The position numbers and the translations under genes are program-made. A stretch of 64,000 nt of DNA from positions 1 through 64,000 of the IMG/VR virus record IMGVR_UViG_3300006880_000001. One strand, 5' to 3'. Under the pieces are notes generated by a model, which was not told the origin of the DNA, searched no databases, and was given only the letters and a program-made list of their open reading frames with translations. Below, piece by piece: positions 11,014 to 33,109 of the stretch; the first letter of the stretch is position 1; every line of letters begins with the position of its first letter. The stretch is from a virus.

Positions 11014-11790
11014 TCAGATCTCCTTGGCCAGTGCCTCGAAGTGGGCGATGGCGCGGTCGAGGTTGTGGAGGCGGACGCCCTTCGCCGCGTCTTCCGGGGA
11101 GGTGCGTCCGTTGAGGAGCTCGAGGAGCGCGAGGATGGTCGCCTTCGCCACCTTCGCATCGCGGATGGCGGCGAGGAACAGGCGACGAGACTCCTCGACG
11201 AGGAGCGCGTCGAAGTTGCGGAGGGCGAGGAGCGCCGACCGGGTGCCGTCGCGTTCGACGCGGCGGCCGACCTTGCGTTCACGCACCGACCCGGCGCGCA
11301 ATGCACCACGCAGCCGACGCAGCCGCTCGGCCAAGTCGGCCGCCAGGTCAGCGGCGCTGGCGGCATCGAGGTCGAGGCGCGCGACGCCGATGGCCACGGC
11401 GATGCGGCGCTCGGAGCCCGCTGCGATCGCCTCCGCGTTGAGCGCCTTGGCCTGCTCGCGCAGCGGCGCTGCCTTGGCGCGGATCTCTTCCGCGACCCGG
11501 AGCGGGGCGTACCAGCCCAGCGGCGTGTTGGCGCAACCGGTGCGGCACAGGTAGTCCACGTCCTTCTTGAGCTTGAGCGACCGGGTGACGATGTCTGCGT
11601 TGTCGACGGTGTGGATCACCTCGCGCTTGTTGCGCGCGATCACCTTGCTCTTGGCGGTGAGGCCGCCGGAGACCGTGGCCGAGCCGACGATGATGCAGCC
11701 CGGACGGAACGCCGCGAGCACACGTGGGGGCGGCGCCGGCGGCGTCACCTCGATGACGGGGTTCTCTTCGACCTTCTTGAGCGAGCGCAT
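11014..11790 (-). CDS. helical hypothetical phage protein
   Basis: 258 aa ORF with GGAG RBS. Confidence 0.7.
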   Translation of the reverse strand: MRSLKKVEENPVIEVTPPAPPPRVLAAFRPGCIIVGSATVSGGLTAKSKVIARNKREVIHTVDNADIVTRSLKLKKDVDYLCRTGCANTPLGWYAPLRVAEEIRAKAAPLREQAKALNAEAIAAGSERRIAVAIGVARLDLDAASAADLAADLAERLRRLRGALRAGSVRERKVGRRVERDGTRSALLALRNFDALLVEESRRLFLAAIRDAKVAKATILALLELLNGRTSPEDAAKGVRLHNLDRAIAHFEALAKEI

Positions 11791-11793
11791 GGA

Positions 11794-12255
11794 TCACTCC
11801 CCCCGACCGTTGAACCGGACGGCCGTGAGCCAGGCGTCCGCCTCCACCATCGCGGTGGCCTGGCTGTCACTGACGCTGGCGCGGACGATGATGTCGACGA
11901 CCGTCTTCTTGTCTACGATGACGAAGAGCCAGGGCTTGTCGCAGTCCCGCGCGGTGAACTGGCGCGACTTGCCCAGCACGTCGACGTGGGTCGGTCGATA
12001 CTCGGTCTTCCACTGCTCGAGGATGCGGTCGATGTAGCGGGTCTCGATGTACAGGTCAGCGTCGTCCTTGGTGTCGATGCCGACACGGCCGGCGGTCCAG
12101 CCCTGCACGCCGTCGGCCGCGGCGTGGATGGTCATCCACCCGTCGCTCACCATCGGTGGCGTGGCCCACGTCGGATGGGCCCATTTCACCATCACCTTCA
12201 CATACCTCTTCGTCCGGGTCGCCGTCGCCGTCGCCGTCTTCTTGGCCTTCGCCAT
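11794..12255 (-). CDS. hypothetical protein
   Basis: AAGGAG RBS directly after RNA motif copy 1. Confidence 0.7.
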   Translation of the reverse strand: MAKAKKTATATATRTKRYVKVMVKWAHPTWATPPMVSDGWMTIHAAADGVQGWTAGRVGIDTKDDADLYIETRYIDRILEQWKTEYRPTHVDVLGKSRQFTARDCDKPWLFVIVDKKTVVDIIVRASVSDSQATAMVEADAWLTAVRFNGRGE

Positions 12256-12272
12256 GGTCAACTCCTTCTTGC

Positions 12273-12338
12273 GCTCCACCATGGAGCCGTTGGGGCGCCG
12301 CCCGGGTAGCGAACCCGGATCCGATCCGCTCGCGGCGC
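12273..12338 (-). ncRNA. intergenic structured RNA motif, copy 1
   Basis: GCGCCGC-GAGCGGAUCGGAU-CCGGG-UUCGCUA-CCCGG-GCGGCGC plus a second hairpin. Confidence 0.7.
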
Positions 12339-12343
12339 GCCTG

Positions 12344-12703
12344 CTACAGCTTGTAGAGGTACTTGTTGGCTGCTTCGACGTCGCCGAGGGCGATGTGGCC
12401 GAGCGCGGTGCGCACTTCCTCCTCGGTTCGGTTCCCTTCGAACAGCGCGTCGCAGACGCCGCCGAGAAGCTCCTTGGCCCGCCGGGGGATGGTCGGCCAG
12501 CTGGCTTGCGGGTGGCCTTCGAGGCGAACGTGGAAGCAGACGAAGTCCCGCATGATGAGATCCTCGCTCCGACGAGGCGGACGGGATGTGGTCCCGCACG
12601 GCGTCACGGCGCACCACTGTTCCTGATCGTACTGCTCCGGGTGCTCGTCGAGGGCGCGAAGGACAGCGGCGGCGATCTCGGCAGGGGTCTTCTCGGGGGT
12701 CAT
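12344..12703 (-). CDS. hypothetical phage protein (W..CGTT motif)
   Basis: MTPEKTP start with GGAG RBS. Confidence 0.6.
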   Translation of the reverse strand: MTPEKTPAEIAAAVLRALDEHPEQYDQEQWCAVTPCGTTSRPPRRSEDLIMRDFVCFHVRLEGHPQASWPTIPRRAKELLGGVCDALFEGNRTEEEVRTALGHIALGDVEAANKYLYKL

Positions 12704-12717
12704 GGCTTGCTCCGGAT

Positions 12718-13968
12718 CTACCAGCCCAGCTTCTCGCGATCGTCGTCGGGGATCGGGAGGAGGACGTTCTTGACGTAGAGGAGGTCCGCCGCCTGCTCCT
12801 CGAGCTCGTCGTCGACCCAGGCGCTCCTCGACGTCCAGGCACCCTCGTGGGCCGCGCGGGTGATGGCGTTGTGGATGGCGGCGCGGCTGTCGTCGGCCTC
12901 CTCCGCCTCGGCCGCGGCCAGGATGGCCTTGACCTGGTCGTCCTTCGTACCGAACGGTGCCCTGGCGAGGCCGTGGTAGACGATGCGACGGACCGCCTCC
13001 TCCATCGACAGCTTGTCCTTGGTGTAGCGGTCGATGTAGAAGTCGGTCCAGGCACTGCGCCACATCGTGGCGAAGTGCTCGAGGGCGGCACCCTGCGCGC
13101 CCAGGGCCTCACGGGCGACCTCGATCAGGTTCGCCTGCGTGTGCCGCGCGTGGAAGATGACCCGCTTGTCGCGCAGGAGCGTGCAGTTGATGCAGCGGAT
13201 GCGCTCCATCGCCCAGTTGAGCTTGAACCCTGCGCTCCCGTCGTCCGCCGAGGTGATGCGGAGCATCAGGCGGTGCGGCTCGCCGACCGTACCGGCCTTG
13301 CCTCCCTCGAAGTGGTGCGGGCTCTGCAGGATGACGTCGACGCGGGAGCGGGAGCCGTCGTAGCGGACGCGCGCCCGGCTATCGGTCGGCATGATCTCGC
13401 GGATGTCGTTGGCGATCTGGTCGAGGTCGTAGCGTACATAGCGCTCGGACACGACCGAGTAGAGCGTGCGGGGCTTGTCGAGGTCGACGATCAGCGCCCC
13501 GTCCGCCGTGCGCTGCGGGCGCCGGCGGCTGCGGAGCACCGCCTTGTCGCCGGCGCGGCTGCCGAGCCAGAGGTTGACGTTCGAGCGCAGGGCGGGCGGG
13601 ATCGACGCGGGTGCGTAGCTGCTCAGGCGCTGCCAGCCGACTGGCTCGGCCCCGAACTCGAGGCGAGCGCCGTCGACGTCCGACGCCATGACGAGGCCGC
13701 TCCGCCCGATCCGCATGTCGCCCAGGTCGACGGTGTGGTCGATCCGGTTCTCGGCCTGAACCGCGTCGGCCAGCCGATCCATTGCCTCCCCGGTGGTGGC
13801 AAGCTTCAGAAACTGATCGCGGGCGCGCCGGGCGACCTGGTCGCCGACCGCCATCATCTCGGTGCCGTGCTCGAAGAAGGCTTCGCCGGGGTTGAGGCCC
13901 AGCTCCTTCAGGAGCTCGACGCCCTTGTCCGCACGCTTCTTGCCTTCGGGTCGAACCGTCGTCGTCAT
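12718..13968 (-). CDS. DUF932/DUF945-like protein
   Basis: SVVSERY, ITSADDGS, RIRCINC and ARHT motifs typical of this mobile-element family. Confidence 0.7.
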   Translation of the reverse strand: MTTTVRPEGKKRADKGVELLKELGLNPGEAFFEHGTEMMAVGDQVARRARDQFLKLATTGEAMDRLADAVQAENRIDHTVDLGDMRIGRSGLVMASDVDGARLEFGAEPVGWQRLSSYAPASIPPALRSNVNLWLGSRAGDKAVLRSRRRPQRTADGALIVDLDKPRTLYSVVSERYVRYDLDQIANDIREIMPTDSRARVRYDGSRSRVDVILQSPHHFEGGKAGTVGEPHRLMLRITSADDGSAGFKLNWAMERIRCINCTLLRDKRVIFHARHTQANLIEVAREALGAQGAALEHFATMWRSAWTDFYIDRYTKDKLSMEEAVRRIVYHGLARAPFGTKDDQVKAILAAAEAEEADDSRAAIHNAITRAAHEGAWTSRSAWVDDELEEQAADLLYVKNVLLPIPDDDREKLGW

Positions 13969-14022
13969 CGTCTCTTTTGCCTTTCCGCCCCACGGTGGGG
14001 CCTGTGAAGTGTCCCGTGAGTC

Positions 14023-14499
14023 TTACCCACGAGTAGTAAGCGAGTCAAGAAGCTTGTGGGGATCGACCGTGGCCAGGATGTCGCTGTCCGAACCTACGAT
14101 CTTGATCACGACCTTGCCGGCGATTGCCACCGCTTTGGCCTGCGCGAGGAGTGCGGACATCGTCGCCTTGTCGCCGTCGTGCCAGCGCTTGGTGGTCCCG
14201 GTGCCGAGATGAATGTACTTGACCACCACGGCATCATTCGCGGGTCGCGGTGATGGTGGTGGCGGGGGCAGGGGCAGCGGTTCGAGCTGCAGCACCTGCC
14301 GCGTCGCGCGCGGAAAGACGATCGGCAACGTCGCCTCCTCGTCGTCCGCCGGTGGAAGCGGGATCGCCTGTTCGGTCGGCGCCCGGCTGAGGGGAGGTGG
14401 CGCAGACTGCCCGCCCGCTCCCTTGTTGTCTCCGAAGAAGTACCCCGCAGTCTGCCGCAGTGCCCGTCGACGCATGGGAGGCGCTCCTGGGGCGTTTAC
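14023..14499 (-). CDS. Pro-rich hypothetical protein
   Basis: Open frame between neighbours; start uncertain. Confidence 0.45.
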   Translation of the reverse strand, partial: VNAPGAPPMRRRALRQTAGYFFGDNKGAGGQSAPPPLSRAPTEQAIPLPPADDEEATLPIVFPRATRQVLQLEPLPLPPPPPSPRPANDAVVVKYIHLGTGTTKRWHDGDKATMSALLAQAKAVAIAGKVVIKIVGSDSDILATVDPHKLLDSLTTRG

Positions 14500-14825
14500 G
14501 GCTCGACGACGTCGAGGTCGTGGTCCACAGCCCACCGAACCGCCTCGGTGGAGGCGATCCCGGCATCGTAGTGACTCTCGACGTGGATGGCGCGCTGCCA
14601 GCCGGCCGGGAGGTCCACGAGGAGCTCGACAGCGACGTGATGTAGGCCGTCGCAGCGGTACACGAAGACCCGCACCGGATCGTGCGGCAGGAACGGATGG
14701 CGCGCCGTCCGGATCGCCGGGGCCGGCATGAGCGCCATGAGGTTCTTGGCGGTTTCGACCTCGGAGACCGCGGCCTTGAGGGTCTTGGGTGCGATCGTCT
14801 TCTTGCTCTTCTTGCTTTTGCTCAT
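14496..14825 (-). CDS. hypothetical protein
   Basis: MSKSKKSKK start, AAGGAG RBS. Confidence 0.6.
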   Translation of the reverse strand: MSKSKKSKKTIAPKTLKAAVSEVETAKNLMALMPAPAIRTARHPFLPHDPVRVFVYRCDGLHHVAVELLVDLPAGWQRAIHVESHYDAGIASTEAVRWAVDHDLDVVEP

Positions 14826-14914
14826 TGGGAAAGCTCCTTCCGGGACTCCATTAGCCCCGATCGAACCTGCGAGGCAATCACCCCGCAGGGTCTGTCGGAT
14901 CCACCGAAGCCGCC

Positions 14915-15172
14915 TTAGCGCTGCGCGAGCCTGACCAAGTTCGTAAAGGCCAGGTTCTCGGGACGCGGCACACCGGGCATGAAGGCGATGAGGGCGCGGA
15001 CCCGCGCTGCCAGCTCGGGCGCGCAGGCCGCGCAGACCACCAACGACTCGAGCCCATTCGACATGTCGAAGATGGTCCACCCGCCCGATGTCTTGAGATC
15101 TTGCGCGAAGTGGCCGCGCGAGAACGTCAATGGGGCAGCACAGCAGATGCACGGACGCGTGATGGGGTCCAC
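14915..15172 (-). CDS. small zinc-finger-like protein
   Basis: CICC and CAAC. Confidence 0.55.
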   Translation of the reverse strand: MDPITRPCICCAAPLTFSRGHFAQDLKTSGGWTIFDMSNGLESLVVCAACAPELAARVRALIAFMPGVPRPENLAFTNLVRLAQR

Positions 15173-15175
15173 CGC

Positions 15176-16576
15176 TCACCTCCCGGTCGTGAGGAGGAAG
15201 CGGAGCACGCGCGTCCACGCCTCCTCGAGCGTGGCGACGTGCGCGTGGTCGCCGTCGCCGGCGACGTCGTGGGCGAACTCGTGCAGGAGGGTCGCGGTTG
15301 CGGTCTCGACCGAGATCAGCTCACCGCGCGCCAGGGCCACGCGTCGGGTCGCGCCGTCGTGTTGGCCGAGGCGCGACGCGGCGCGGAAGGTGACGACGTC
15401 GAGACGTTCGAGGACGCGATCGATCGCGTCCGATCGCTCGGTCGGTGTCGCGTCGGGGTTGCTCATGACGTCGAGGTCGTCGAGCGCGAACGTCCTCGGG
15501 AAGGCGACGACCACGAACCGGGCCGCCGCCTCAAGGCGTTGCCGCTCGTCGACGTCGAGATCGTTCCAGCCGTGGGTGGCCACGATCTCGTTGGCGGCCG
15601 CGGTCTTGATCTTGTCGAGCGTGCCCAGCGCTGGGGCCAGCACCGCCGCCATCGCCCGGGGCACGACGGCGCCGACGCGGCCGAGGTGGGCCAGGTCGCG
15701 CGAGTCGGCCAGGGTCGTGACCGGGACGGCGGCGTCGCCGTGGACCTTCTTGAAGGCGCCCGCCAGCGCCTCGCTGGCGGCCTTCGACGGCTCCCAGTGC
15801 TCGGAGCCGCGGACGTCCTCGGCGTCCTTCTGGAGGAGCTCGAAGTAGCGCTCGACGAGCTTCGGGTTCGCCTCGACCGCCGAGGCCCACAAGGCCTGCA
15901 GCCGGAAGCGGAGATCCCAGCTGTCGACCATGCGCCGATCGCGGTCCAGCTCGGCGTGCTCGAGGTCGTAGCCGCAGTGTAGGTCCGAGCGGCTGTGGGT
16001 GTAGAGGCCCTTGACGAAGACGTCGCCCTTGCGCGTCGGGTCCAGGAGGATCGAACCGCGCCCGGGTACGTTCACGGTGTTCTTGTCGGGATCGGGCCAG
16101 AGGAAACGGATGTGGTTCTGGACGAACGTCCAGTGGCCCTCGTTGCAGCCGGCCACCTCGATCGAGATGCGCCGCTTGAACTCGCGGCCGCCGGTGATGG
16201 TGAAGACGAGGACGTCGGCCTTGAACTTCTCCGATCGGGCGATCGTCGGCACCCACACCTCGCTACCGGTGCGGATGGTGATCCGGGCGCCCTTGCGGAG
16301 GAGCGCCAGGATGCCGAGCTTCAGCCCCTCGCCGAACCGGCCGATGGTGTCGGTCCGGTTGGCCTTGGACGTCCGGCCGAGCAGGAGGACCTCCTGCGGC
16401 AGCGTGACGCCCTCGTTCTCGATGCGAAGCTTGCCGCTCTTCTTGTCGAAACGGACGGTCATTTTGGCGCCATGTTCGATCTCGGCATCGCGGGAGTTCT
16501 GCACCAACTCGCGGATGCCCTCCCACACGCCCCAGGTCGGCAAGTAATCGACGTCGATGGACAGTTCGAGTTTCAT
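15176..16576 (-). CDS. GHKL (HATPase_c/MORC-like) ATPase with C-terminal HEXXH motif
   Basis: IRELVQNSRDA, ENEG, LGRTSK, IGRFGEGLKLG; TLLHEFAH near the C-terminus. Confidence 0.85.
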   Translation of the reverse strand: MKLELSIDVDYLPTWGVWEGIRELVQNSRDAEIEHGAKMTVRFDKKSGKLRIENEGVTLPQEVLLLGRTSKANRTDTIGRFGEGLKLGILALLRKGARITIRTGSEVWVPTIARSEKFKADVLVFTITGGREFKRRISIEVAGCNEGHWTFVQNHIRFLWPDPDKNTVNVPGRGSILLDPTRKGDVFVKGLYTHSRSDLHCGYDLEHAELDRDRRMVDSWDLRFRLQALWASAVEANPKLVERYFELLQKDAEDVRGSEHWEPSKAASEALAGAFKKVHGDAAVPVTTLADSRDLAHLGRVGAVVPRAMAAVLAPALGTLDKIKTAAANEIVATHGWNDLDVDERQRLEAAARFVVVAFPRTFALDDLDVMSNPDATPTERSDAIDRVLERLDVVTFRAASRLGQHDGATRRVALARGELISVETATATLLHEFAHDVAGDGDHAHVATLEEAWTRVLRFLLTTGR

Positions 16577-16603
16577 GGGTCTCCCGCTTCCTTTCCCTTT
16601 CGT

Positions 16604-16647
16604 GCACTCCCCGGGCAACGAGCCCGGATCCGATCCGCTCGGAGCGC
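16604..16647 (-). ncRNA. intergenic structured RNA motif, copy 2
   Basis: GCGCUCC-GAGCGGAUCGGAU-CCGGG-CUCGUUG-CCCGG-GGAGUGC; starts at the G of the upstream UAG. Confidence 0.7.
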
Positions 16648-17261
16648 TACTCTTCGACGGTGTCGACGGCGTCGGGATCGTCGTCGTCGAGGGCGGCCAC
16701 GGTGTCGCAGACGGCCACCACCGGGTTCGTGAGCCGATGATCGATCATGGCGGCCTTGCGGGCCTCCCGGCGTAGTGTCCGTGCCGGCTCGACGAGCCGA
16801 AGCATGGCGAGGAGCCGATCCGCCTGCGACCCCTCGAGTACGACCTCGATGAGCGGGACCGCGCGATCGTCGGGGCCGCCGAACGGTGCGACCTGCGGCG
16901 TGACGCAGGTCTCGGCCTCGGCCGCGTCGTGGAGGAGGCCGAGGCCCACGAACGTGCGGCGGAGATCCATGGCGATGCCTCGCGCCTCGGCGCGGGCTCG
17001 GTCCTCCGCAAGGTGATCCTCGGTGAGGAGCTCCCAGGTCTCACCGTGGAAGGCGCGTCGGCCGGGCCGCGCCAGCTTCTCGGCGACGAGCTGATCGAGG
17101 ATGCGGCGGATCGACGCACGCGCGCTGCGACGAACGGCGTCGGAGACGCGGGTGGCGTGCTCGCGGCGGGTCAGCGCGTCGAGGACGGCGCCCGTCGTGT
17201 AGCGGCGGCCCGGCTGCGCCTTGAGGATGGCGAGGACACTGTCACGGGTGATATCGACCAC
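16647..17261 (-). CDS. winged-helix DNA-binding-like protein
   Basis: N-terminal wHTH-like pattern (SVLAILK..YTTGAV..IRRILDQLVAEKL..TWEL). Confidence 0.6.
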   Translation of the reverse strand: MVDITRDSVLAILKAQPGRRYTTGAVLDALTRREHATRVSDAVRRSARASIRRILDQLVAEKLARPGRRAFHGETWELLTEDHLAEDRARAEARGIAMDLRRTFVGLGLLHDAAEAETCVTPQVAPFGGPDDRAVPLIEVVLEGSQADRLLAMLRLVEPARTLRREARKAAMIDHRLTNPVVAVCDTVAALDDDDPDAVDTVEE

Positions 17262-17276
17262 GGCTGGGACTCCTTT

Positions 17277-17645
17277 TCAGACATAGGGAAGGACGTCGCC
17301 GCCGTCGCCGTCGGCTGTCCACGTCTCGTCGATCCAGACGGCGTCGAGTGGTGGTGCCGCTGCCCTCGCCTTGGCGATGGCTTCTTCGCGCGTCGGCGCC
17401 ATGACGGCAAAGAGCCGCCGCAGCGAAAGTGGCTTCCGCAGCCAACGCGCTTCGCGCGCGACCTGCCACAGCTTCATCGGTTCGATCTCGGGCTCCGGCC
17501 CCGGAGGGGGAATCGCCCCCGCGTCGGCCAGGATCTCGGCCAGGAGATCCCGGTCATCGGGGTTGCTGCCGATGTAGAAGTCGGCGAACAGGGTGGCGCG
17601 TGCGTGGAGCCACTCTCTCCACTGATCCAGGGTCGACATGGACAT
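17277..17645 (-). CDS. hypothetical protein
   Basis: AAGGAG RBS. Confidence 0.6.
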   Translation of the reverse strand: MSMSTLDQWREWLHARATLFADFYIGSNPDDRDLLAEILADAGAIPPPGPEPEIEPMKLWQVAREARWLRKPLSLRRLFAVMAPTREEAIAKARAAAPPLDAVWIDETWTADGDGGDVLPYV

Positions 17646-17653
17646 GCTCCTTT

Positions 17654-17965
17654 TCAGCGCAGTGCGCGCAGCTTCTTGAAGATGAGGGCGTAGGCCGTCG
17701 GCATCGGCGTGCCGGTGGGGACGAGACTGTCGAGCGCCGCCTCGAGCGTCGCCACCTCCGTGGCCGTCAAGGCATCACGCTCGACGGTCGGGCGGCGAGC
17801 CAGCGTGAACAGCCGCTCGGCCAGCCGGATGCGGCGCTTGTCAGCGCGGCGTCGCATCGGATTGCGGGTGAAGTCGTCGAGGGCATCCGCGAGGAGGAAG
17901 GCGAGATCCGCCTCGTCCTCCTCACTGAGAAGTCCATCGACAACGACGACGATCTTGGTGGCCAC
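17654..17965 (-). CDS. hypothetical protein
   Basis: AAGGAG + GTG after motif copy 3. Confidence 0.6.
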   Translation of the reverse strand: MATKIVVVVDGLLSEEDEADLAFLLADALDDFTRNPMRRRADKRRIRLAERLFTLARRPTVERDALTATEVATLEAALDSLVPTGTPMPTAYALIFKKLRALR

Positions 17966-17978
17966 TGCGACTCCTTTC

Positions 17979-18044
17979 GAGCCCACGGTGGGCTCCTTTG
18001 GTGCGCTCCCCGGCAACGAGCCGGAGATGATCCTCTCGGAGCGC
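17979..18044 (-). ncRNA. intergenic structured RNA motif, copy 3
   Basis: GCGCUCC-GAGAGGAUCAUCU-CCGG-CUCGUUG-CCGG-GGAGCGC plus GAGCCCACCGUGGGCUC hairpin. Confidence 0.65.
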
Positions 18045-18049
18045 TGACC

Positions 18050-18286
18050 TCACCGCGTCCAGGCTCGGATCGCCTGGAGTGCGCGCTCGCGCGTTTTGAA
18101 GCGTTGGTAGGTGGTCTCGGGGAGCCCACCATGCGGCGGATGCGAGACCACGATCTTGCCATTCCGCTCCCAGACAAAGGCCGTGCGGCCATTGGGGAGT
18201 CCGATCGCTCCGGTGGGGGCGTACCGGATCTCGACGCCGTTGGCGGCGAGGTAGTCGAGGAGGGCGGCAGCTTCCGTGACGCTCAT
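18050..18286 (-). CDS. hypothetical protein
   Basis: ATGA coupling, GAGGAG RBS. Confidence 0.55.
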   Translation of the reverse strand: MSVTEAAALLDYLAANGVEIRYAPTGAIGLPNGRTAFVWERNGKIVVSHPPHGGLPETTYQRFKTRERALQAIRAWTR

Positions 18287-19041
18287 GACTCCTCGCCGAA
18301 CGAGCGCGCCCACGCGATCACCTCGGCCGGTAGCTCGCGGTGGAGCCACGACGAGCCCAGCCGATACCCGCATTCGGGACAGACGGCGCGCTGCGCGTGC
18401 GCGTCGAGCGCAGCCTTGTGGTTGCGCCTGGCCGTGACGATGCGCGACCGCTCCTCGGCGAGTCGCGTCGCGCGTTCCGCCGCACTGCGGACATGGCCTA
18501 GGTCCGCCACCGGCGACGGCGCGACGTACGTGGGCTCCGCCTCGGCCCACGCCCGGAAGGTCTCGCCGCGGGCCTCCTGATGCTCGCAGGTGGACTTGAG
18601 GCTGTTCAGGTGGTAGCAGCGGTAGCGGGACACCTCGGGGAACCACTCATTGATGGCGCCCCCGATCTGGCCGCACGAGTCGAGGATCCAGACCTCGCCG
18701 TCTTGGGCCTCGCTCGCCATCTCGTCACGGGCGACGTCCAGCCCATGCAACTTGCCGTCGGTCTTGATGACGTAGCGCGCGGCTGCCTTCGCTGTCGCGC
18801 ACCGCGAGCCGGACCGCTGGTTCATGGCGGTGATCTCGTCGGGCTGATCCTCGAAGAACTGGATCCAGTAGTCGAGGGCGGTGCGCTCTGCCTCGGCGCG
18901 GGGGAGGATGCGGCCCTCCTGGCCGGTGATCGACAACTCCAATTTGCCGCCTCGGTCGTGCAGTGCGACGTGGACGGTGCACCACCGATCGCCTAGGCGG
19001 CGGGTCGCGCGACGGACAGACACAGTCTCGGTCTTGGACAC
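18283..19041 (-). CDS. hypothetical phage protein with C-terminal zinc ribbon
   Basis: SCGQ, YHLN, CEHQ, CPECGY..GSSW. Confidence 0.7.
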   Translation of the reverse strand: MSKTETVSVRRATRRLGDRWCTVHVALHDRGGKLELSITGQEGRILPRAEAERTALDYWIQFFEDQPDEITAMNQRSGSRCATAKAAARYVIKTDGKLHGLDVARDEMASEAQDGEVWILDSCGQIGGAINEWFPEVSRYRCYHLNSLKSTCEHQEARGETFRAWAEAEPTYVAPSPVADLGHVRSAAERATRLAEERSRIVTARRNHKAALDAHAQRAVCPECGYRLGSSWLHRELPAEVIAWARSFGEES

Positions 19042-19068
19042 GGTTGCTCTCCCCGGTTAGGGTCTCAC

Positions 19069-19136
19069 GGGCCCACCATGGGCCCCGTTGGCGCACGCCC
19101 CGGGCAACGAGCCCGGATCCGATCCGCTCGGCGTGC
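19069..19136 (-). ncRNA. intergenic structured RNA motif, copy 4
   Basis: GCACGCC...GGCGUGC outer stem, core identical to copy 2. Confidence 0.7.
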
Positions 19137-19148
19137 TACGGCTGGCTC

Positions 19149-19814
19149 TCAGTCCTCGCGGTTCCAGCGCGGTTCGCGTACGGCCGTCGGCGTGGGCTCC
19201 TTGGGCCCGACACGCCACTCTCCGACCTTGTTTCCGTTCGCGTCGTGGATGAACCCATAGCGGATCCCTCGCGGGGCCACGCCGAGGACGTCATCTCCCC
19301 GCTCGCGCATCTGGCGCGCGATCGCGTCCACCGCGGACGCGACGTCGCTGCCGGTGCGCATGGCATCGTTGCCGAGATCGATCTCGACGGTGAATCGCAC
19401 CTCGGGCGCATCATCGTCCATGACCGACTGCAGGATGTCTCGCGCGGCCTCGGCGCGGCGAGATCCGCGCTTGACGGCGTCGAGAATGCTGTCAGCAAGC
19501 GCGAGCGTGGCTTCGCCCTTCATGCCGTCGTAGTAGCCCCTCGGCTGCGTGAAGTCCGCTTCCGACTTGTACGAGCACGCGCCGAGGATGTCGACGCCGT
19601 CGAAGTCTCCGAGGCGGGCTGTCACCTTGGCGCAGAACCACGCCCACAGGTTGCCCTTCGCTAGTTGCGCGCGGATCCAAGACACTGTCTCGGCGTCGTC
19701 CTCGGCGTCACCGGAGGCGAAGTGATCCGCGGGATCGGTATCCTCCTCCTCGATCTCGAGCTTGAACTCCACCCGCTCGCGGATCTTCTCGGCCAGCTCG
19801 TCTCTGTCCATCAT
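19149..19814 (-). CDS. acidic early protein
   Basis: AAAGGCTAACCGCC-ATG start; D/E-rich. Confidence 0.7.
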   Translation of the reverse strand: MMDRDELAEKIRERVEFKLEIEEEDTDPADHFASGDAEDDAETVSWIRAQLAKGNLWAWFCAKVTARLGDFDGVDILGACSYKSEADFTQPRGYYDGMKGEATLALADSILDAVKRGSRRAEAARDILQSVMDDDAPEVRFTVEIDLGNDAMRTGSDVASAVDAIARQMRERGDDVLGVAPRGIRYGFIHDANGNKVGEWRVGPKEPTPTAVREPRWNRED

Positions 19815-19836
19815 GGCGGTTAGCCTTTCGTCATCC

Positions 19837-19902
19837 GAGCCCACCGTGGGCTCCGTGGTGCGCCACCCGGGCAGCGAACCCGGGGTGATCCGCTCGTGGC
19901 GC
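19837..19902 (-). ncRNA. intergenic structured RNA motif, copy 5
   Basis: GCGCCAC...GUGGCGC outer stem, UUCGCUG loop, second hairpin. Confidence 0.7.
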
Positions 19903-20111
19903 TACTCCTTGGATCGCGGTAGCGCGTCCTCGATCCGAGCCGCGAGATCGCGCAGCGCCCCCGCCAGATCTCGCGCGGCGTCGAGATCGGTCCGGCCCTG
20001 CCCCTCGGGTACGCGGCCCGCCGGTATGTAGGCTGTCCACTGCGCATCGCTGTCAGAGTCGCCGGCGCGAACGAGCCGGATCCGGCCCCCGAGCATTGAG
20101 CGTCCGATCAT
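19902..20111 (-). CDS. small hypothetical protein
   Basis: GAGGAG RBS; stop abuts motif copy 5. Confidence 0.55.
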   Translation of the reverse strand: MIGRSMLGGRIRLVRAGDSDSDAQWTAYIPAGRVPEGQGRTDLDAARDLAGALRDLAARIEDALPRSKE

Positions 20112-20114
20112 GGC

Positions 20115-20807
20115 CTACTCCTCCTCGACGGCGTAGCGGTCGGGGATGATTGCGTTGACGCGTGCCAGGAGCCACGTCTCGCGTTCGGTGAGCGGCCGGG
20201 GCCGGCCACAGAGCCCGGTGGCGCGGGTGGGATCGATCCTCTTGGGCTCGGGCCGGAACCCAGCCGTACCGCTGAGGAAGTCCCACCCACTGTTGCCGAT
20301 GGCGTTTTGCTGTGTGTCGAGCATGAACCCGAGCATCAGTTGCGCGCCGACGGCTTCGACGGCGCAACCCTTGACGGGTCCGTGGGCGCGGCGGCTGCTC
20401 TTCTCGGCGATCACTGCGCGACACCCATAGTCGTGCAACGCTTCGCACAGGATCGCGATCAGCGTCTCATCGTCCGTGCCGTCGTCGATTCCATCGCCGT
20501 CGAGGAGCCCCCACGAGTGCACGGCCGACAGGATGCTCGCGTCGCTGGCGAAGCCAGGCGAGACGGCGGACAGGGTCGCGAGCCACCGGTGGCCGTGGGG
20601 CAAGATGCCCTCCTCCTCGACATACTCGAGCTTGATCAGTAGGTACACAGGCCAGTCGCACGCGATCGGCTCGCCGACGCGCCAGAGCGTACCGTCGTCG
20701 CACTGATCGACGAAACTCCGGTAGGCCACACCGCGCAACAGGCGCAGCGGGGCGCCGGGGGGTCGGGGGTCGGACATGGCGGTTGCGTTCATATCGATGG
20801 CGGGCAT
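20115..20807 (-). CDS. hypothetical early protein
   Basis: AAGGAG RBS after motif copy 6. Confidence 0.65.
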   Translation of the reverse strand: MPAIDMNATAMSDPRPPGAPLRLLRGVAYRSFVDQCDDGTLWRVGEPIACDWPVYLLIKLEYVEEEGILPHGHRWLATLSAVSPGFASDASILSAVHSWGLLDGDGIDDGTDDETLIAILCEALHDYGCRAVIAEKSSRRAHGPVKGCAVEAVGAQLMLGFMLDTQQNAIGNSGWDFLSGTAGFRPEPKRIDPTRATGLCGRPRPLTERETWLLARVNAIIPDRYAVEEE

Positions 20808-20840
20808 CTGCTAGACGCTCCTTTGGCTTTCGCCACTTAT

Positions 20841-20908
20841 GGCGCCCACCACGGGCGCCGTGGGGTGCTCCCCGGGCAACGAGCCCGGATCCGATCCGCT
20901 CGGAGCAC
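20841..20908 (-). ncRNA. intergenic structured RNA motif, copy 6
   Basis: GUGCUCC...GGAGCAC outer stem, core identical to copy 2. Confidence 0.7.
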
Positions 20909-20923
20909 GCGGTGCGGCTGCGG

Positions 20924-21253
20924 CTAGGGCTCGCCGCGGCCGTCGAGGAACGGATCGCAGTCCGCCTCCTCCTCCTCCTCCTCCTCCTCGTCGTCCGCCT
21001 CGTCGTCGCCCTCCTCCGCGTCGTCGCCCTTGCGAATCTCGGCGAGCCACTCCTCGCCGAGATCGATGGCTCGCGCCGCGGTGAGCGTGTACAGATCCGG
21101 GTGCCCGGACTGACACTCCACGTTCTCCCAGCCGTCACGGCGGGACGCCCACAGGTTGAGATACGATCCGTTGATCGTGACGAGTAGCCCCAACTCCTCG
21201 TCGCACGCGACGATCGGACCGTTGCTCAGTACGTCGAAAATGGTCATGGACAT
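20924..21253 (-). CDS. highly acidic small protein
   Basis: Poly-D/E tail; AAAGGCTAATCGCC-ATG start. Confidence 0.65.
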   Translation of the reverse strand: MSMTIFDVLSNGPIVACDEELGLLVTINGSYLNLWASRRDGWENVECQSGHPDLYTLTAARAIDLGEEWLAEIRKGDDAEEGDDEADDEEEEEEEEADCDPFLDGRGEP

Positions 21254-21258
21254 GGCGA

Positions 21259-21927
21259 TTAGCCTTTCCGGTGGAGGGGTTGCAGCCACAGCGCCAGCGA
21301 CGCGGCGATCACCGCGGCGCGCGCGAGGGCTTCGCGATCCTCGCGAGACCAGCGCACGATCCAGTTGTCCGACGCGTCGGCAAACTCGTCGCATGGCTCG
21401 ACGCGGCAGAACGCGATCAGCGCGTCCATGTCGAGATCGCCCTCGATCGTCCACCGGATCGGATCCAACTCGTCGTCAAACAGATCAGCCGCGGTGATTT
21501 CCTCGGCAATCCGGGCCAGATCGTGCGCGAGATCCTGGCAGATGCCGGGCCATTGCGCATCGCGCAGCGCCGACTCCATCTCCGCGTGGCGCGTGTCGTT
21601 CAGGATCAGGTAGCTCGCGAGTGCGGCGGCGCACTCCTGCAGGATCTTCACGAGATCGGCTCGGGTCGGATCGACGATGATATGGTCATACCATCCCACA
21701 GCCCAGTGCGAGGCACCGAGGATGTCCCACCCCGTCTCATCGGGATCCGCCGCTCGGAGTTGCGCGACGATCTCATCATGGTTGCAGCGATCGACGACGC
21801 CCGAGTCCCGATGGACTCCGCCGACGAGCGCGAAGCGCCACCCCTGCTCGGTGACCCGCTTGTCGCTGCAAGCGAAATTCGGAATGTCCTCGTAGCGCTT
21901 CAAGACTTCGATCTCGGTGACGGACAT
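21259..21927 (-). CDS. acidic early protein (HWAVGW motif)
   Basis: HRDS, SHWAVGWYD, YLILND; start after motif copy 7. Confidence 0.7.
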   Translation of the reverse strand: MSVTEIEVLKRYEDIPNFACSDKRVTEQGWRFALVGGVHRDSGVVDRCNHDEIVAQLRAADPDETGWDILGASHWAVGWYDHIIVDPTRADLVKILQECAAALASYLILNDTRHAEMESALRDAQWPGICQDLAHDLARIAEEITAADLFDDELDPIRWTIEGDLDMDALIAFCRVEPCDEFADASDNWIVRWSREDREALARAAVIAASLALWLQPLHRKG

Positions 21928-21948
21928 GGCGGTTAGCCTTGCCTTTCC

Positions 21949-22014
21949 GGGGCTACCGTAGCCCCCTAGTGCACCCCCCGGGCAACGAGCCCGGATCCGA
22001 TCCGCTCGGGGCGC
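21949..22014 (-). ncRNA. intergenic structured RNA motif, copy 7
   Basis: GCGCCCC...GGGGUGC outer stem (G-U pair), core identical to copy 2. Confidence 0.7.
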
Positions 22015-22021
22015 CGCGCTG

Positions 22022-22750
22022 TCACTCGTCGTCGTCGACGGGCGCAACGTACATGCATCGCGTGGTCGCGGGGCGCGGCATGAGGCGCGCGGCGCCCGCA
22101 TCCGTGGCGCGGACGGTCCAATACGTCACGGTGTCGTCCGAGATCTGCGCCAGCCGATCGGCGATATCTTGGACGTCTAGCTCGAGCTGGATCTGAGGGT
22201 CCGTACCGTCGGGCTCGGACGCGGTGTCCGCGTAGGTGTCGCCCTGGTACGTCACGACGACAAACAACGGCAACTCCACGATACAGCGTCCCTCACGGCA
22301 TTCCCGACAGGGTGCATCGACGCGATCGGACTCGAAGTCCGCTCCAAAACGATGGCTACCGCAGCGCGCACACGGCACTTGCGGACCGGGGTTGACGCGA
22401 TGGGGGATCCGCTCACCGTTCATGTTCCGGCAATGGATTTCCCGGGTCGGAGCCGTGTCGTCGTCGTCGTCGTCGTCGTCGTCGGTCCCGAACATCTCAT
22501 CGAGCGCCGCGCGCGCCTCGTCGGCGGAGTCGTGCGGACCGGTCCAATCCGTACAGTCGAGGTAGCCCGGGGCCGACAGGCGCGCCCACCACTTGCCGTC
22601 GACAGTCTCGACGGAGGCGGGATCGCAGCCCGTCTCTTCAGCGAAGCGCTCGTGGCTGCCCCATACGTACGCCGGGGCGACGTACGTCTCCCCACCGGCG
22701 TCGCCAACATGGAAAGCCTCTTGCGTCACCTCTGGTCTCATGAATGACAT
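22022..22750 (-). CDS. acidic first gene of the early operon
   Basis: WARLSAPGYLDCTDW motif, poly-D run, CxxC pairs. Confidence 0.75.
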   Translation of the reverse strand: MSFMRPEVTQEAFHVGDAGGETYVAPAYVWGSHERFAEETGCDPASVETVDGKWWARLSAPGYLDCTDWTGPHDSADEARAALDEMFGTDDDDDDDDDTAPTREIHCRNMNGERIPHRVNPGPQVPCARCGSHRFGADFESDRVDAPCRECREGRCIVELPLFVVVTYQGDTYADTASEPDGTDPQIQLELDVQDIADRLAQISDDTVTYWTVRATDAGAARLMPRPATTRCMYVAPVDDDE

Positions 22751-22770
22751 GGCGGTTAGCCATCCTTTCC

Positions 22771-22853
22771 GAGCCCCACCGCGGGGCTCCTAGTGCGCCG
22801 CGTGGCAGCGAGCCACGGCGATCCCACTGTGGGATCCGATCCACTCACGGCGC
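22771..22853 (-). ncRNA. structured RNA motif, copy 8 (5' leader, with an extra inserted hairpin)
   Basis: GCGCCG..GAGUGGAUCGGAU[CCCACAGUGGGAUC]..CGUGG-CUCGCUG-CCACG-CGGCGC; inner stem covaries. Confidence 0.65.
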
Positions 22854-23279
22854 AAACCTATCGGAAACACGTGTGTTTCCCTTGGCCAAATCCTCTAGCC
22901 CCCGCTGTTTCGCTGTCACGCAAGATCCACGCGTCCCCCCACACCCCTCCACCTAGCGCTCGCATCCGCAAGCGCGCTACGCGCGTTCCCAGCACGGTCG
23001 GGCGATGGCCTATTCGGTTGTCACGCCCCGGGCGCCGTCGGCGCCGCGTGGCAGCTGTAGCTCCCCAGGGGGCGAACCCCGGGCCGATCTCGCGGTCGGG
23101 CGATGGACCCTGCCGCTTAGCCGTCGGGCGCGCGTAGCGCCGTGGCGTCCACCGAGCGCGCGTCCCGGGACCGTGCGCGGCCGCCCGAGGGTGGGCTGGC
23201 GCCGCGCGTAGGCCCGGACGTGCGTCCGGCGCGATCGGATGTAGGTGCTAGTCGTACCTCCGTCGCCCCACCGTGGGGC

Positions 23280-23730
23280 CAAAGGGTGAAAGTCTCGTGG
23301 GTTGCCGTGAGAAACCCGTGGAAATCCCACAGGAAACTCGCCGCTACTCGCCGGCCCATCACTGCGACCGGGGAGTCAACCGTAGCAACGAGTAGGTTTA
23401 GACGCAAGCCCCGTGAAAACTATCTCACAAACTCACGTAATTATTACTGTTTTCCACGTGTTCGTGTGAGCCATACACGGGATTTTCGCGGCTACTCACG
23501 TGTAACCCACGGAAAACTCACAGGAATCGCGGAGTGCCGTGTAACTGTGCGAATCCCCTGTGGAAATCCCACGGCGGACTCACGGCTACCCACGGGCTAC
23601 CCACGGCCGACTCACGGCCCGTACACGGGCGCCTGGCGTACGGGACGCGGGTGGCCGTGAGCGGCCCGTGGGTGACTCACGGCGCACTCGCACCCACACA
23701 CGGCGGATTCACGTGGGATCGCCGGGGCCC
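23280..23730. repeat. repeat-rich non-coding control region, candidate replication origin
   Basis: About 20 CACG/CGTG cores (mostly YCACGG), GTGGAAATCCCAC at 23318 and 23560, AT-rich patch about 23417-23455. Confidence 0.55.
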
Positions 23731-23747
23731 GCGGTAGGCTCGTGGGT

Positions 23748-24017
23748 GTGGATACCCGGGTGATCGGCGTACGACTCCCCCCGGAGATCGTGGCGCGGTT
23801 GGAAGCGATGGAGCGCCAGACGCGGCTCAGTCGCTCGGAGCTACTGCGGCGGATCATCATTACGGCTTTGCAAGGCCAGCCCGACGTCGATGGGGCCCGC
23901 ATCGAGGCCGAGGAGCGGAAGCGCGCGTATGCGGATGCCGTCCGTCTCATCGCGAAGCGGCTGCGCAAGGTCCTCGACGAGGAGCTGGTGGGCAAGCTCA
24001 TCTCACGGAGGGGGTGA
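23748..24017 (+). CDS. ribbon-helix-helix (CopG/Arc-like) regulator
   Basis: VIGVRLPPEIVARLEAM..TRLSRSELLRRII. Confidence 0.8.
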   Translation: MDTRVIGVRLPPEIVARLEAMERQTRLSRSELLRRIIITALQGQPDVDGARIEAEERKRAYADAVRLIAKRLRKVLDEELVGKLISRRG

Positions 24018-24204
24018 ACCGGCCGAGGAGCCTTGTCAAAGCCACCGTGCACGCATCGCAGAGATCTCCACGGCAGCCTCGCGGCACCGCGACAGTGTGA
24101 CCGGCGCCAGCGTGGCACTTCAGACCGTCGTGGACTGGGTAGACTTCGGCGAGCGCAGCGCGGAAGGTGGTACGTCCGGCGGCCAGCTGACGGGCGAGGC
24201 TCAT
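23998..24204 (-). CDS. small hypothetical protein
   Basis: ATGA coupling; CH..H..C..CxxC. Confidence 0.4.
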   Translation of the reverse strand: MSLARQLAAGRTTFRAALAEVYPVHDGLKCHAGAGHTVAVPRGCRGDLCDACTVALTRLLGRFTPSVR

Positions 24205-24470
24205 GCGGTTGCCTCGTCGTCGTCCTCGTCCTCCTCGTCGTCCTCGTCGTCCTCGTCGTCCTCGTCGTCGACCTCGCTGACGGTGTCGACTTCGGGACGC
24301 TTCGCCGACCCCCAATCGATCTCCCAGTCGCCCGGGGAGGCCTCCTCCTCTTCGAGTCGGGCGATCTCCGCGATGGCCGCTTCGCCGGCCTCGTCCGGAT
24401 CGTCGGCCTCGATCTCGACGTTGGTGTAGAGCTGCACGTCGCGCAGCAGGATGACTTCGAACTTCGGCAT
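24201..24470 (-). CDS. highly acidic small protein
   Basis: MPKFEV..VEIEADDPDEA pattern, D/E tail. Confidence 0.65.
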   Translation of the reverse strand: MPKFEVILLRDVQLYTNVEIEADDPDEAGEAAIAEIARLEEEEASPGDWEIDWGSAKRPEVDTVSEVDDEDDEDDEDDEEDEDDDEATA

Positions 24471-24835
24471 CAGTTGGGCGCTCCCGGATCGAGTTCTTCG
24501 GTGTCGGTGAACAGCTCGCCGACCTTCCCGGTGGCGAGAGCCTCGAGCTCGGGTCCGGTGGGCCGCCGCCACGTCCCCTCGCCGAACACGTCGTAGTCGT
24601 CCTCCTCGCCGGCGACGCGGAGGACCTCGACTCGGAGGGTTCCCTCCCAGATCCAGAGCCCAGCTTCGTTCGGCGTCCCGAGGTAGGAGATCTCGGGGGT
24701 GACCGACGGTCCGAACTCCATGAACTCCATCATGGCGCGGTGGCCGATGGCGTCGAGGAGGACGGTCCGGCCGTGTCCGTTGTCGTCGATCTGGTACGCG
24801 AAGAAGCGCTGGTTCCGGTGAGTCGAGGGCTTCAC
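24470..24835 (-). CDS. hypothetical protein
   Basis: Leaderless GTG after GTCAC-N10-TAGGCT. Confidence 0.65.
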   Translation of the reverse strand: MKPSTHRNQRFFAYQIDDNGHGRTVLLDAIGHRAMMEFMEFGPSVTPEISYLGTPNEAGLWIWEGTLRVEVLRVAGEEDDYDVFGEGTWRRPTGPELEALATGKVGELFTDTEELDPGAPN

Positions 24836-24866: not shown

Positions 24867-25265
24867 TCACGTGTGGCCGAGCTTCTTACCGAAGTCGATC
24901 CAGGAGGAGATCTCCTTGCTCAGGACCGCGTCTGGCCAGACGTCCGGCGAGTAGGGGACGTCCCCGAAGCCCTCGATGTCGGCGATGACGAGCGCCAGCA
25001 GTCGGTGGGCCTGCTCGCCCGGTCCTGGCTTGACGATCGCGTCGTGGGCGTCCCCGGGCGTGCCCTCGACGACCGCGATGACCGGAGCGTCGTGGGCCGG
25101 GTCGTAGGGTCCGTGCAGCTCGCCGAAGAGGCTTCGGATGGTCGTCAGACCGAAGCGGCAACCAGGCCAACGTCGCTCGCAGAGGCTGCGCGCGGCGCGT
25201 TCGTCCCCTTCGAAGCAGGGCTTCTGGATGCCCTTCTCCCACGCGGCGACGATGACCTTCTTCAC
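24867..25265 (-). CDS. hypothetical protein
   Basis: GTGA coupling to the dehydrogenase stop. Confidence 0.55.
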   Translation of the reverse strand: MKKVIVAAWEKGIQKPCFEGDERAARSLCERRWPGCRFGLTTIRSLFGELHGPYDPAHDAPVIAVVEGTPGDAHDAIVKPGPGEQAHRLLALVIADIEGFGDVPYSPDVWPDAVLSKEISSWIDFGKKLGHT

Positions 25266-26611
25266 GGGTTGAACCAGCCCGGGCGACCGATCCGCACGTA
25301 GTCGACGCCCTTGGCGGCCCAGTCGTGGCCTTCCCAGCTGCCGTGGGCGTCGATGATGGTCTGGTGACCCCCTCGCCACCGTTCTTGGGGCCAGCTCGCG
25401 TAGGCGTCGTGTGCGGTGGCCAGGACGACGACGTCCGCGCTGCGAACTTCCTCGGTGGAGCCCGCTGCACGCAGCCCCTGGTGATCGATCCGCTTCACCA
25501 TCTCGTCCAGCTCCGCCGGCGAGAAGAGTGGATCGTGGACGACGATGGAGGCGTCGAAGGGATGGCACAGGCTCAGGGCCTTGGCGAGCCGCAGCCCGGG
25601 GGACATGCCCACGTCTCGGAAGTTGGGACGGTAGCCGAGACCGAGGACCGCGACTGCGGGCGAAGGGTTGCTCGTCCACACCCTGCGCCGCGTCTTGTGC
25701 CAGATGAGCTTGGCGATCTCGGTGCTGATCCCCTCTTCGGCGAGGTTGGCGACGTCGAACATCGTCTGCGGGTCGCAGATGGACGTCCGCCCCCGAGGGG
25801 TGTCGATGTGGCGGTACGTCCCCTCCGCGAGGTACTTGCTGCCGAGGGGAACGCAGCGCCCTCCGCTGCCGAGGCCGAAGTAGAGGGAGCCGAAGGACTC
25901 GAAGCGCCAGTGGGTCGCCGCCAGCTGCACCGCGGTGGCGACGTCGACGTTCGGGTACGACAGCGCGACGTCGTGGACCAGCATGATGACGCTATGGAAG
26001 ATGGCGTTCTCGAGCGGCTTCACGAGCTCGGCGGTCTCGAGGTCGGTCGTCATGATGCGGTCGCGCGGCGTCACGCAGGTCAGGACCTCGATCGCCTTCG
26101 CCAGGCTGACCTCATCGAGGGCGCCGACGACGCGGGGCAGGTTGCTCAGGTTCTTGTCCGGGCTGGCGAACCAGTCTCGCCTGGGTGCGTGGGCGAACGT
26201 GTGCCCGCATGCGGCGGCTGCCTCCGCGAGCGGGCGGAGCGTCCCTGGCGTCACCGTGCTCTCGACGATGATGCAGGTGGGCTTACGTGCGTTGTCGCAG
26301 ATCCAGCGCACGGTCTCGACGACCGCGTCCATCCACGGCGCGTCACGACGTTCCGACGGCACCGCTAGGATGTGCGCGTCGGCGTCGAGGTCGAGCGTGG
26401 CGGTGCGGTCCGTGGTGGCCCAGAGGCGATCACGGTAGTGGACCTCCGCCAGGTAGCTGAGGAACTCGCCGGCCTTCGGCGCGCCGTTGTTGATGGCGTC
26501 GACGACGGTCGGATCCGGATCGTAGCCGACGACGCCAGCCAGTCGACTCCCGGCGAAGTGGACCGCGGCGGTCAGGCCGACGTAGCCGAGGCCGTGGACC
26601 GCGATCTTCAC
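25262..26611 (-). CDS. UDP-glucose/GDP-mannose (UDP-ManNAc, WecC-like) dehydrogenase
   Basis: GLGYVG, IVESTVTPG, AELVKPLEN, GSGGRCVP, VLGLGYR, ATAHD. Confidence 0.9.
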   Translation of the reverse strand: MKIAVHGLGYVGLTAAVHFAGSRLAGVVGYDPDPTVVDAINNGAPKAGEFLSYLAEVHYRDRLWATTDRTATLDLDADAHILAVPSERRDAPWMDAVVETVRWICDNARKPTCIIVESTVTPGTLRPLAEAAAACGHTFAHAPRRDWFASPDKNLSNLPRVVGALDEVSLAKAIEVLTCVTPRDRIMTTDLETAELVKPLENAIFHSVIMLVHDVALSYPNVDVATAVQLAATHWRFESFGSLYFGLGSGGRCVPLGSKYLAEGTYRHIDTPRGRTSICDPQTMFDVANLAEEGISTEIAKLIWHKTRRRVWTSNPSPAVAVLGLGYRPNFRDVGMSPGLRLAKALSLCHPFDASIVVHDPLFSPAELDEMVKRIDHQGLRAAGSTEEVRSADVVVLATAHDAYASWPQERWRGGHQTIIDAHGSWEGHDWAAKGVDYVRIGRPGWFNP

Positions 26612-27312: not shown

Positions 27313-27364
27313 GGCTTCGATCCCTACCACGGGCCGGTGACCGAACATGGTAAAGTGCCGGAAC

Positions 27365-33108: not shown

Positions 33109-33109
33109 A

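Follow-up and report, generated by a model that had tools for sequence, protein, structure and literature searches.

The virus record IMGVR_UViG_3300006880_000001 is 129,359 bp long, with direct terminal repeats at its ends and a G+C content of about 68%, and its bases 1-64000 constitute the 64-kb stretch of DNA analyzed here (hereafter the window). A string of co-oriented genes lies on the minus strand between positions 1243 and 22750, and its first ~11 kb is punctuated by eight copies of a folded element of about 44 nucleotides (nt), repeated between the cistrons, which is the subject of this report. The products of this gene string mostly lack a Pfam or PHROG match, the family-matched exceptions being a GHKL-type ATPase-like protein, two tyrosine-recombinase-like proteins and one MazG-like protein. 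No paralogues were found among the 28 open reading frames (ORFs) of the genes between the copies. The two tyrosine-recombinase-like genes, which fall in the PHROG integrase family, are located at 1491-2387 and 4645-5520 in this same minus-strand string, in a virus that has terminal repeats.

Exactly eight copies were detected in the whole genome, all on the minus (mRNA) strand and all between 12.3 and 22.9 kb, in agreement with an earlier note that had been drawn from the letters of the window. The composite pattern GAGNGGATC..CC..GGYTCGYTR matched the whole genome seven times on the reverse strand, with no match on the forward strand or in a reversed control, copy 5 being one base short of the pattern. 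A covariance model built from seven copies, with copy 8 left out (model R1), recovered its seed copies at E-values of about 1e-14 to 1e-10, and a family model (R2) returned the same eight copies in this genome. Copy 8, absent from the R1 seed, was found by both models at E-values of 5e-4 to 2e-3, the next-best R1 matches lying at E-values of at least 0.08 in the window with filters off and at least 0.96 in the whole genome.

From 5' to 3', the element consists of the first strand of a 7-bp outer stem (P1), a one-sided 5' bulge of 11-13 nt made of the invariant GAGNGGAUC followed by 2-4 further nucleotides, an inner stem closed by a YUCGYUR heptaloop, the inner return strand and the P1 return strand, which stacks on the inner stem with zero spacer. 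In the window, the invariant part of the bulge is followed by 3-4 nucleotides, and the inner stem is a GC helix of 4-5 bp with the strand CCGG(G). After duplicate removal, the family described below comprises 22 distinct sequences, in all of which P1 has 7 bp, the loop 7 nt and the junction 0 nt, the inner stem having 5 bp in 17 and 4 bp in five of them, so that the total stacked helix amounts to 11-12 bp. Twelve unpaired positions are invariant across the family, eight in the bulge (G8 A9 G10, G12 G13 A14 U15 C16) and four in the loop (U27 C28 G29 U31). The eight cores, all on the minus strand, vary around this plan. Copy 1 (12290..12338) combines P1 GCGCCGC/GCGGCGC with the loop UUCGCUA; copy 2 (16599..16647) has its P1 overlapped by the upstream TAG and lacks the second hairpin that follows the other copies; copy 3 (17998..18044) carries the linker GAGAGGAUCAUCU and an inner stem of 4 bp; P1 reads GCACGCC/GGCGUGC in copy 4 (19088..19136); copy 5 (19855..19902), with P1 GCGCCAC/GUGGCGC and the loop UUCGCUG, has a linker shorter by 1 nt; copy 6 (20860..20908) has P1 GUGCUCC/GGAGCAC and copy 7 (21966..22014) P1 GCGCCCC/GGGGUGC, with a G-U at the third pair. 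Copy 8 (22790..22853), the leader copy, contains an extra 7-bp hairpin in its linker, a U-G pair in P1 and the inner stem GUGG/CCAC.

The pairing of the two stems is maintained by compensatory change. In the alignment of the seven window copies, all 89 cells hold standard pairs and five of the 13 pairs are changed on both sides; none of 500 shuffles reached this level, and registers slid along the alignment paired at 33-56%. Two further compensatory changes occur in the inner stem of copy 8, as the earlier note had indicated. The test on the family agrees: among the 22 distinct sequences, which hold 11 P1 5' strands and 15 different helices, 144 of the 154 P1 cells pair as compared to 102.7 +/- 5.3 with shuffled partners, a value reached by none of 2000 shuffles. 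In a model-fitted alignment of the family, which leans towards the model to which it was fitted, 92.4% of the 302 cells pair and ten of the 13 pairs (all seven of P1 and three of the inner stem) change on both sides, with 0/500 shuffles reaching this value and slid registers pairing at 37-48%. Minimum-energy folds show both P1 and the inner hairpin in five of the eight window copies. Kept pairing together with invariant unpaired bases argues for purifying selection on the fold, and these alignments indicate a covarying, strand-oriented, intergenic structure. Two additional contacts were rejected. A Y-R pair closing the loop seemed to covary in the window but is C.A in nine of the 22 distinct sequences (11 of 23 alignment rows), and the loop is for this reason taken as a heptaloop. 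The six-pair pseudoknot AGCGGA:UUCGCU between linker and loop, which the earlier note had suggested, is not supported by covariation, since the bulge base N11 (C, A or U) does not track loop G29 and the pairing is perfect only where the loop reads UUCGCU, that is in copies 1 and 5.

The spacers of the window are laid out in a constant order: a stop codon, a distance of -1 to 15 nt, the element, 5-6 unpaired nucleotides reading N-C-N-A-N (with CCA in five of the eight copies), a second GC hairpin, a purine-rich ribosome-binding site (RBS) and a start codon. The placement of the copies at or just after a stop and before an RBS was thus borne out, an RBS and a start being present after each of the eight; the ORF called upstream of leader copy 8 does not pass the GC3 filter, a test of third-codon-position G+C applied to called ORFs. 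In copy 2, the G of the TAG that ends the well-supported gene 16647-17261 is at the same time the first base of P1, and a stop codon also overlaps the first P1 base in the related locus L300. The distance from stop to element remains short in relatives (mostly 2-14 nt), whereas anything between 15 and 77 nt separates the element from the start codon that follows. In every context with an identifiable upstream ORF the motif lies in the coding sense, and it is on this orientation, always that of the flanking genes, that the presumed acting strand rests. The second hairpin, whose stems covary around a central RYGGU/ACCGU, follows seven of the eight copies, at 12273..12289 after copy 1 and at approximately 17979-17997, 19069-19087, 19837-19854, 20841-20859, 21949-21965 and 22771-22789 after copies 3 to 8, always on the minus strand. 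Palindromes of this class (core CCCRYGGTGGG) number nine, all of them located between 12.2 and 23.3 kb, and one weak match lies at 117579. Seven of the nine follow the motif and two, with the core CCCACGGTGGG, stand without it, one at 13985..14003 in an intergenic spacer of the operon and the other at about 23263-23281 in the control region upstream of copy 8. The second hairpin constitutes an element in its own right, and the lone palindromes suggest an independent role, as DNA operator or RNA hairpin. The genes following copies 8, 7 and 5 (at about 22750, 21936 and 19820, minus strand) share the same 14 nt through the start codon (GGCTAACCGCCATG); the repeated cassette therefore reaches the ATG in these cases. 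No intrinsic terminator was detected at a copy: the interval 11500-24500 contains three terminator-like sites as compared to 4.2 expected, and the 3' flanks of the copies carry no U run, unlike an intrinsic terminator.

Among pattern-matched contigs, the element was present in 15 of 16 viral ones and in about 22 of 30 from metagenomes, some of the latter records being identical to viral ones. Among the 120 genome contigs in the matches listed, 24 had at least six of seven P1 positions pairable and one, a 56-kb contig in a metagenome-assembled genome (G007), displayed the full architecture. With model R2, five other virus records (37-63 kb) each yielded a single good copy, and another 150 genomes belonging to the phylum of G007 yielded no match, so that one in 151 sampled genomes of this phylum matches, namely through the 56-kb contig itself, which is probably a phage contig. 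All relatives carry a single copy. A first degenerate pattern scan of viral contigs gave at least 117 loci that were mostly chance matches: R1 returned nine matches at E ≤1 on 100 of them, six of which were true and lay on five loci, and two weak false matches on 19 other loci (17 from the degenerate scan plus L125 and L126). A scan with the exact linker gave a single match, by chance. The carriers are otherwise unrelated to this virus. When its 233 ORFs were compared by tblastn with five carriers that are complete or nearly so and with 11 partial loci, only spike-like and Sak4-like proteins matched, and the five fully fetched carriers have no specific protein in common with it. A link to Ro60 and Y RNA was dropped, as no such protein is common to the carriers. 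No close relative of the virus was found among 50,697 phage records by megablast of the 11 kb or blastn of motif units, and no related locus was found with its 472-aa protein; tblastn with its polymerase and a 780-aa protein gave distant matches alone (<33% identity), so that no host could be assigned.

The genes flanking the element are diverse, the largest cluster having four members, and one gene family lies upstream of the motif in three contigs and downstream of it in another. Contigs L142, L144, L146 and L151 have one and the same sequence across the end of the upstream gene, the motif, the hairpin and the RBS as far as the ATG, immediately beyond which they part, so that the element coincides with sharp mosaic joints in these four contigs. 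The proposal of the earlier note that the copies could seed gene shuffling by recombination receives some support from these joints and from the families swapping sides of the motif; in the contigs of two DNA runs, possibly from the source samples, breaks occur at the repeats, with untrustworthy joints having sides of 20-24 letters only and no well-supported rearrangement. The mosaic joints would be expected if the element acted as DNA, as a folded single-strand or cruciform site of recombination or replication, or as a protein operator, which would explain the cassette-like shuffling. The two tyrosine-recombinase-like genes of the same gene string, the occurrence of the accompanying palindrome alone in the control region and the wobble pairs of the relatives, which favor the other strand (see below), point in the same direction. 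We nevertheless regard a DNA-level element as quite improbable, considering that its orientation always follows transcription, that no recombinase is common to the carriers, that the DNA runs break at the repeats and no more, and that the unpaired bases are conserved and the outer stem free, the opposite of what is known of integron attC sites. A neutral or selfish intergenic repeat, spread by recombination and without function, would be in keeping with unrelated genes between the copies and with a repeat unit that extends to the start codon in three window copies. It would hardly keep P1 paired by compensatory changes in 11 sequence versions or preserve 12 unpaired bases across contigs without specific genes in common, and this is in our opinion the least credible explanation, to be considered highly improbable.

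The element does not correspond to a known RNA class, in accordance with the earlier note, which could not match it to a family. A search of window positions 11500-23500 against Rfam 15 at E ≤10 gave five weak matches, none at a copy, and the loci of seven relatives gave 11 weak matches, none at the motif. The self-cleaving ribozyme classes of Rfam (hammerhead, twister, pistol, hatchet, hepatitis delta virus (HDV)-like and others) did not match. Examination by hand led us to drop an HDV-like topology, as relatives are without the second hairpin, as well as a kink-turn, a guanidine-II-like hairpin pair and a CRISPR-repeat mimic, whose defining parts are absent and for which there was no Rfam match. 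Literature searches with short motif strings returned unrelated primer-type matches only, and those on phage tRNA-like or RNase P elements, intercistronic processing and structured RNAs returned general papers; among these, a survey of structured-RNA candidates in viruses (PMC10690425) may include the motif in its supplements.

It is a serious though doubtful possibility that phages use this element to cut their polycistronic messages at cistron ends, be it as a small self-cleaving ribozyme of a new class or as a minimal tRNA-like minihelix on which tRNA-processing enzymes of the host act; by analogy, this would be the bacterial-virus counterpart of mitochondrial tRNA punctuation, occurring eightfold in one operon. 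A ribozyme cutting the polycistronic RNA at each copy would be consistent with a size of about 44 nt, covarying stems and some 12 unpaired bases that never vary and cluster in a single bulge and a single loop, with the absence of a protein common to carriers, and with its presence in phages, in several copies within one transcript. In addition, the GAG of the bulge could pair with the YUC of the loop, a candidate three-pair pseudoknot that, by reading, is consistent in 22 of 22 sequences. This contact is invariant and hence uninformative for covariation, the longer linker-loop pairing does not covary, no Rfam ribozyme family matches, and the copies located at operon ends gain nothing obvious from cleavage, which makes a ribozyme distinctly unlikely.

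As to the minihelix, P1 would represent the acceptor stem, the inner hairpin the T arm and the GG of the bulge the D-loop G18G19, and the operon would be cut by RNase P, 3' trimming enzymes and the CCA-adding enzyme, as in the tRNA punctuation of mitochondria. The geometry of an acceptor/T-arm stack is indeed present in all 22 sequences, a 7-bp stem lying without spacer on a 4-5-bp stem with a 7-nt loop. The loop begins with UUCG or CUCG, the GG is invariant, copy 8 has its extra arm where an anticodon stem would sit, and no phage partner protein is common to the carriers. N-CCA follows five of the eight window copies, and the virus's own tRNA-like genes (33034-33186) encode CCA; it follows only one of the 14 distinct relatives, and many bacteria do not encode CCA. 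The T-loop consensus is U54-U55-C56-R57-A58, whereas position 58 is C or U in 22/22 sequences and position 54 is C in 16/22. Neither ARAGORN nor the Rfam models of tRNA and transfer-messenger RNA (tmRNA) detected the motif, the sole match of the tRNA model being weak and located in L132 away from it, and the tmRNA model giving none. Furthermore, the base before P1 shows no preference for U, and a cut by RNase P on the 5' side of P1 would deprive the upstream stop codon of its final base in copy 2 and in L300. On balance, we consider a tRNA-like minihelix unlikely.

It is also conceivable that a host protein or the ribosome binds the element and regulates expression without cutting, the candidates being a regulator of translation, a protein that binds GGA, a docking site at which the ribosome would use a partial complementarity to its 16S 3' tail, and a processive antitermination signal. 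The fold displays the invariant single-stranded GAGNGGAUC between two stable helices, mostly between a stop and an RBS, and its bulge GAG and GAUC are complementary, as judged by hand, to the CUC and GAUC of GAUCACCUCC, the universal 3' tail of 16S rRNA. Such pairing would be lengthened by a G at N11, yet N11 is never G (0/22), and the bulge is separated by 50-70 nt from the start codon that follows. The copies at operon ends have no downstream gene to regulate, and antitermination signals such as nut and put are present once or twice per operon, not eight times. A binding site of this type thus does not seem a likely explanation.

We favor, with a probability of roughly 0.4, the reading that these sequences represent a hitherto uncatalogued family of structured RNAs, ~44 nt long and acting in cis, that phage mRNA carries and that are located at the 3' ends of cistrons. 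The tight distance from stop to element, the loose distance from element to start and the copies at operon ends associate the element with the 3' end of the cistron that precedes it. In at least two lineages, G002 (L101) and L147, it stands at a convergent gene junction, at an operon end without a downstream cistron, and its job therefore needs no following gene; in the tailed phage G006 it follows the first small gene of an operon with an ATPase, an exonuclease and Sak4. The lack of a shared partner protein together with the diverse flanks suggests that a host factor is involved or that the RNA is self-contained. The element would act as RNA and be read by the host: host machinery would recognize the fold and, at its position or immediately 3' of it, generate or shield the end of a message, by an endonucleolytic cut in the short 3' spacer, a block to 3' exonucleases or a termination-like release. 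Because of the overlap of stop and P1 in copy 2 and L300, any cut would fall inside or after the element and leave it on the upstream message. Each upstream message would thus end in a stable structure and, in this virus, the next message would start with the second hairpin and the RBS, the eight marks dividing the initial ~11 kb of a long operon, transcribed leftward, into segments that are stabilized independently. The absence of terminator-like sites in excess of chance is compatible with one long primary transcript; a single early transcript of ~17 kb, as proposed in the earlier note, is an inference from gene order, the upstream control region and this absence.

Several observations weigh against this proposal. 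The acting strand is left unproven by the wobble pairs: the argument of the earlier note that these are compatible with the minus strand holds in the window, where 94/94 cells pair in the sense as compared to 91/94 in the antisense, and is reversed in the relatives (152/165 versus 162/165), because many of them have C.A at the seventh pair of P1 and A.C at the fifth pair of the inner stem. Folding energies are mostly unexceptional when compared to shuffles, z ranging between +0.09 and -3.15, with two of the eight copies falling below -2. The sequence was found in no RNA run. To block an exonuclease, a simple GC hairpin would be enough, and the 12 unpaired bases that never vary suggest instead catalysis, a tertiary fold or a specific binder. 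A stacked helix of 11-12 bp is short for RNase III, and the spacer following the P1 return strand is unconserved across the family. Finally, as one copy is enough in relatives, punctuation may be special to this virus.

Upstream of copy 8, a non-coding region of approximately 900 bp (22860..23745), in which no minus-strand ORF passes the GC3 filter, contains about 20 CGTGAGT, CGTGGGT and CCACGG repeats, a duplicated inverted repeat of the GTGGGATTTCCAC type and an AT-rich patch. It looks like a predicted promoter/operator region of the leftward operon, or an origin region. Directly 5' of copy 8, at 22863-22885 on the minus strand, lies a perfect 8-bp palindrome GGAAACAC..GTGTTTCC followed by GATAGGTTT, which could be a leader hairpin or an attenuator. 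Elsewhere, the genome carries replication genes, a glycosylation cluster and spike-like proteins. The glycosylation cluster, with sugar-nucleotide and glycosyltransferase/methyltransferase genes at 25262-31188 and 35009-37463, encodes a UDP-GlcNAc 2-epimerase, a UDP-sugar dehydrogenase, an NAD-dependent epimerase and GT2 enzymes. The two tRNA-like genes at 33034-33186 adjoin each other, encode CCA and have unusual T loops; ARAGORN calls only the second (33110-33186), as a tRNA-Ile with anticodon AAT.

Compact covarying RNAs with a dozen invariant unpaired bases have before turned out to be ribozymes, mimics or regulatory sites, and the present one is absent from Rfam yet present in phages between which no specific genes are shared. 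If message ends were defined there, the element would reveal a way in which GC-rich phages deal with long operons in the absence of canonical terminators, and could possibly serve as a portable insulator for synthetic operons. The eight-copy array constitutes a natural experiment, with eight versions of P1 in one transcript, and the element may mark the joints where these phages swap small early genes.

Several known systems share part of this layout. The nut sites of lambda and the put sites of HK022, the stoperators of mycobacteriophage L5 and the conserved inverted repeats of phiC31 are likewise oriented conserved signals in the intergenic spaces of early operons; nut and put, however, number one or two per operon and have other sequences, and the stoperators and phiC31 repeats are short DNA operators without covarying stems. 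Integron attC sites are folded, follow cassette ORFs, vary in sequence, are associated with a tyrosine recombinase and shuffle genes, but have conserved cores in their paired outer arms, whereas here the outer stem is free, with 11 unrelated P1 strands, and the unpaired parts are conserved; no recombinase shared with the carriers was found by tblastn of the 233 ORFs. Repetitive extragenic palindromic (REP) elements are also GC-rich folded repeats located directly after stops that can stabilize upstream mRNA, and those within 15 nt of a stop reportedly affect translation of the upstream gene. REPs are chromosomal, occur in hundreds of copies and are linked to RAYT transposases, in contrast to an element of viral and metagenomic contigs that is usually present once and in only 1/151 genomes of the phylum of G007. 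With tRNA punctuation and the RNase P substrates of mitochondria and phages (C4 of P1/P7, CI of P4), the element has in common the stacking of 7- and 5-bp stems with a 7-nt loop, a loop starting with YUCG, a GG in a D-loop-like bulge and, after five of eight window copies, CCA; unlike tRNA, it is without a D arm, an anticodon arm and A58, CCA is unconserved in relatives, and the stop codon of copy 2 overlaps the would-be cleavage site. As to the RNase III sites of T7 (R0.3, R0.5, R1 and others), these have a duplex of ~20 bp, about two helical turns, interrupted by an internal loop, in place of the 11-12 stacked pairs found here. Their processing relies on an enzyme of the host, and the upstream message is stabilized by the structure that stays on its 3' end. 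The element differs from them by its 11-13-nt one-sided bulge and invariant bases and by the lack of sequence or model similarity, and cleavage is here only putative. By analogy, and not as a member of the same class, its layout nevertheless resembles that of the T7 sites, both being repeated, related stem-loops with an internal loop placed between cistrons.

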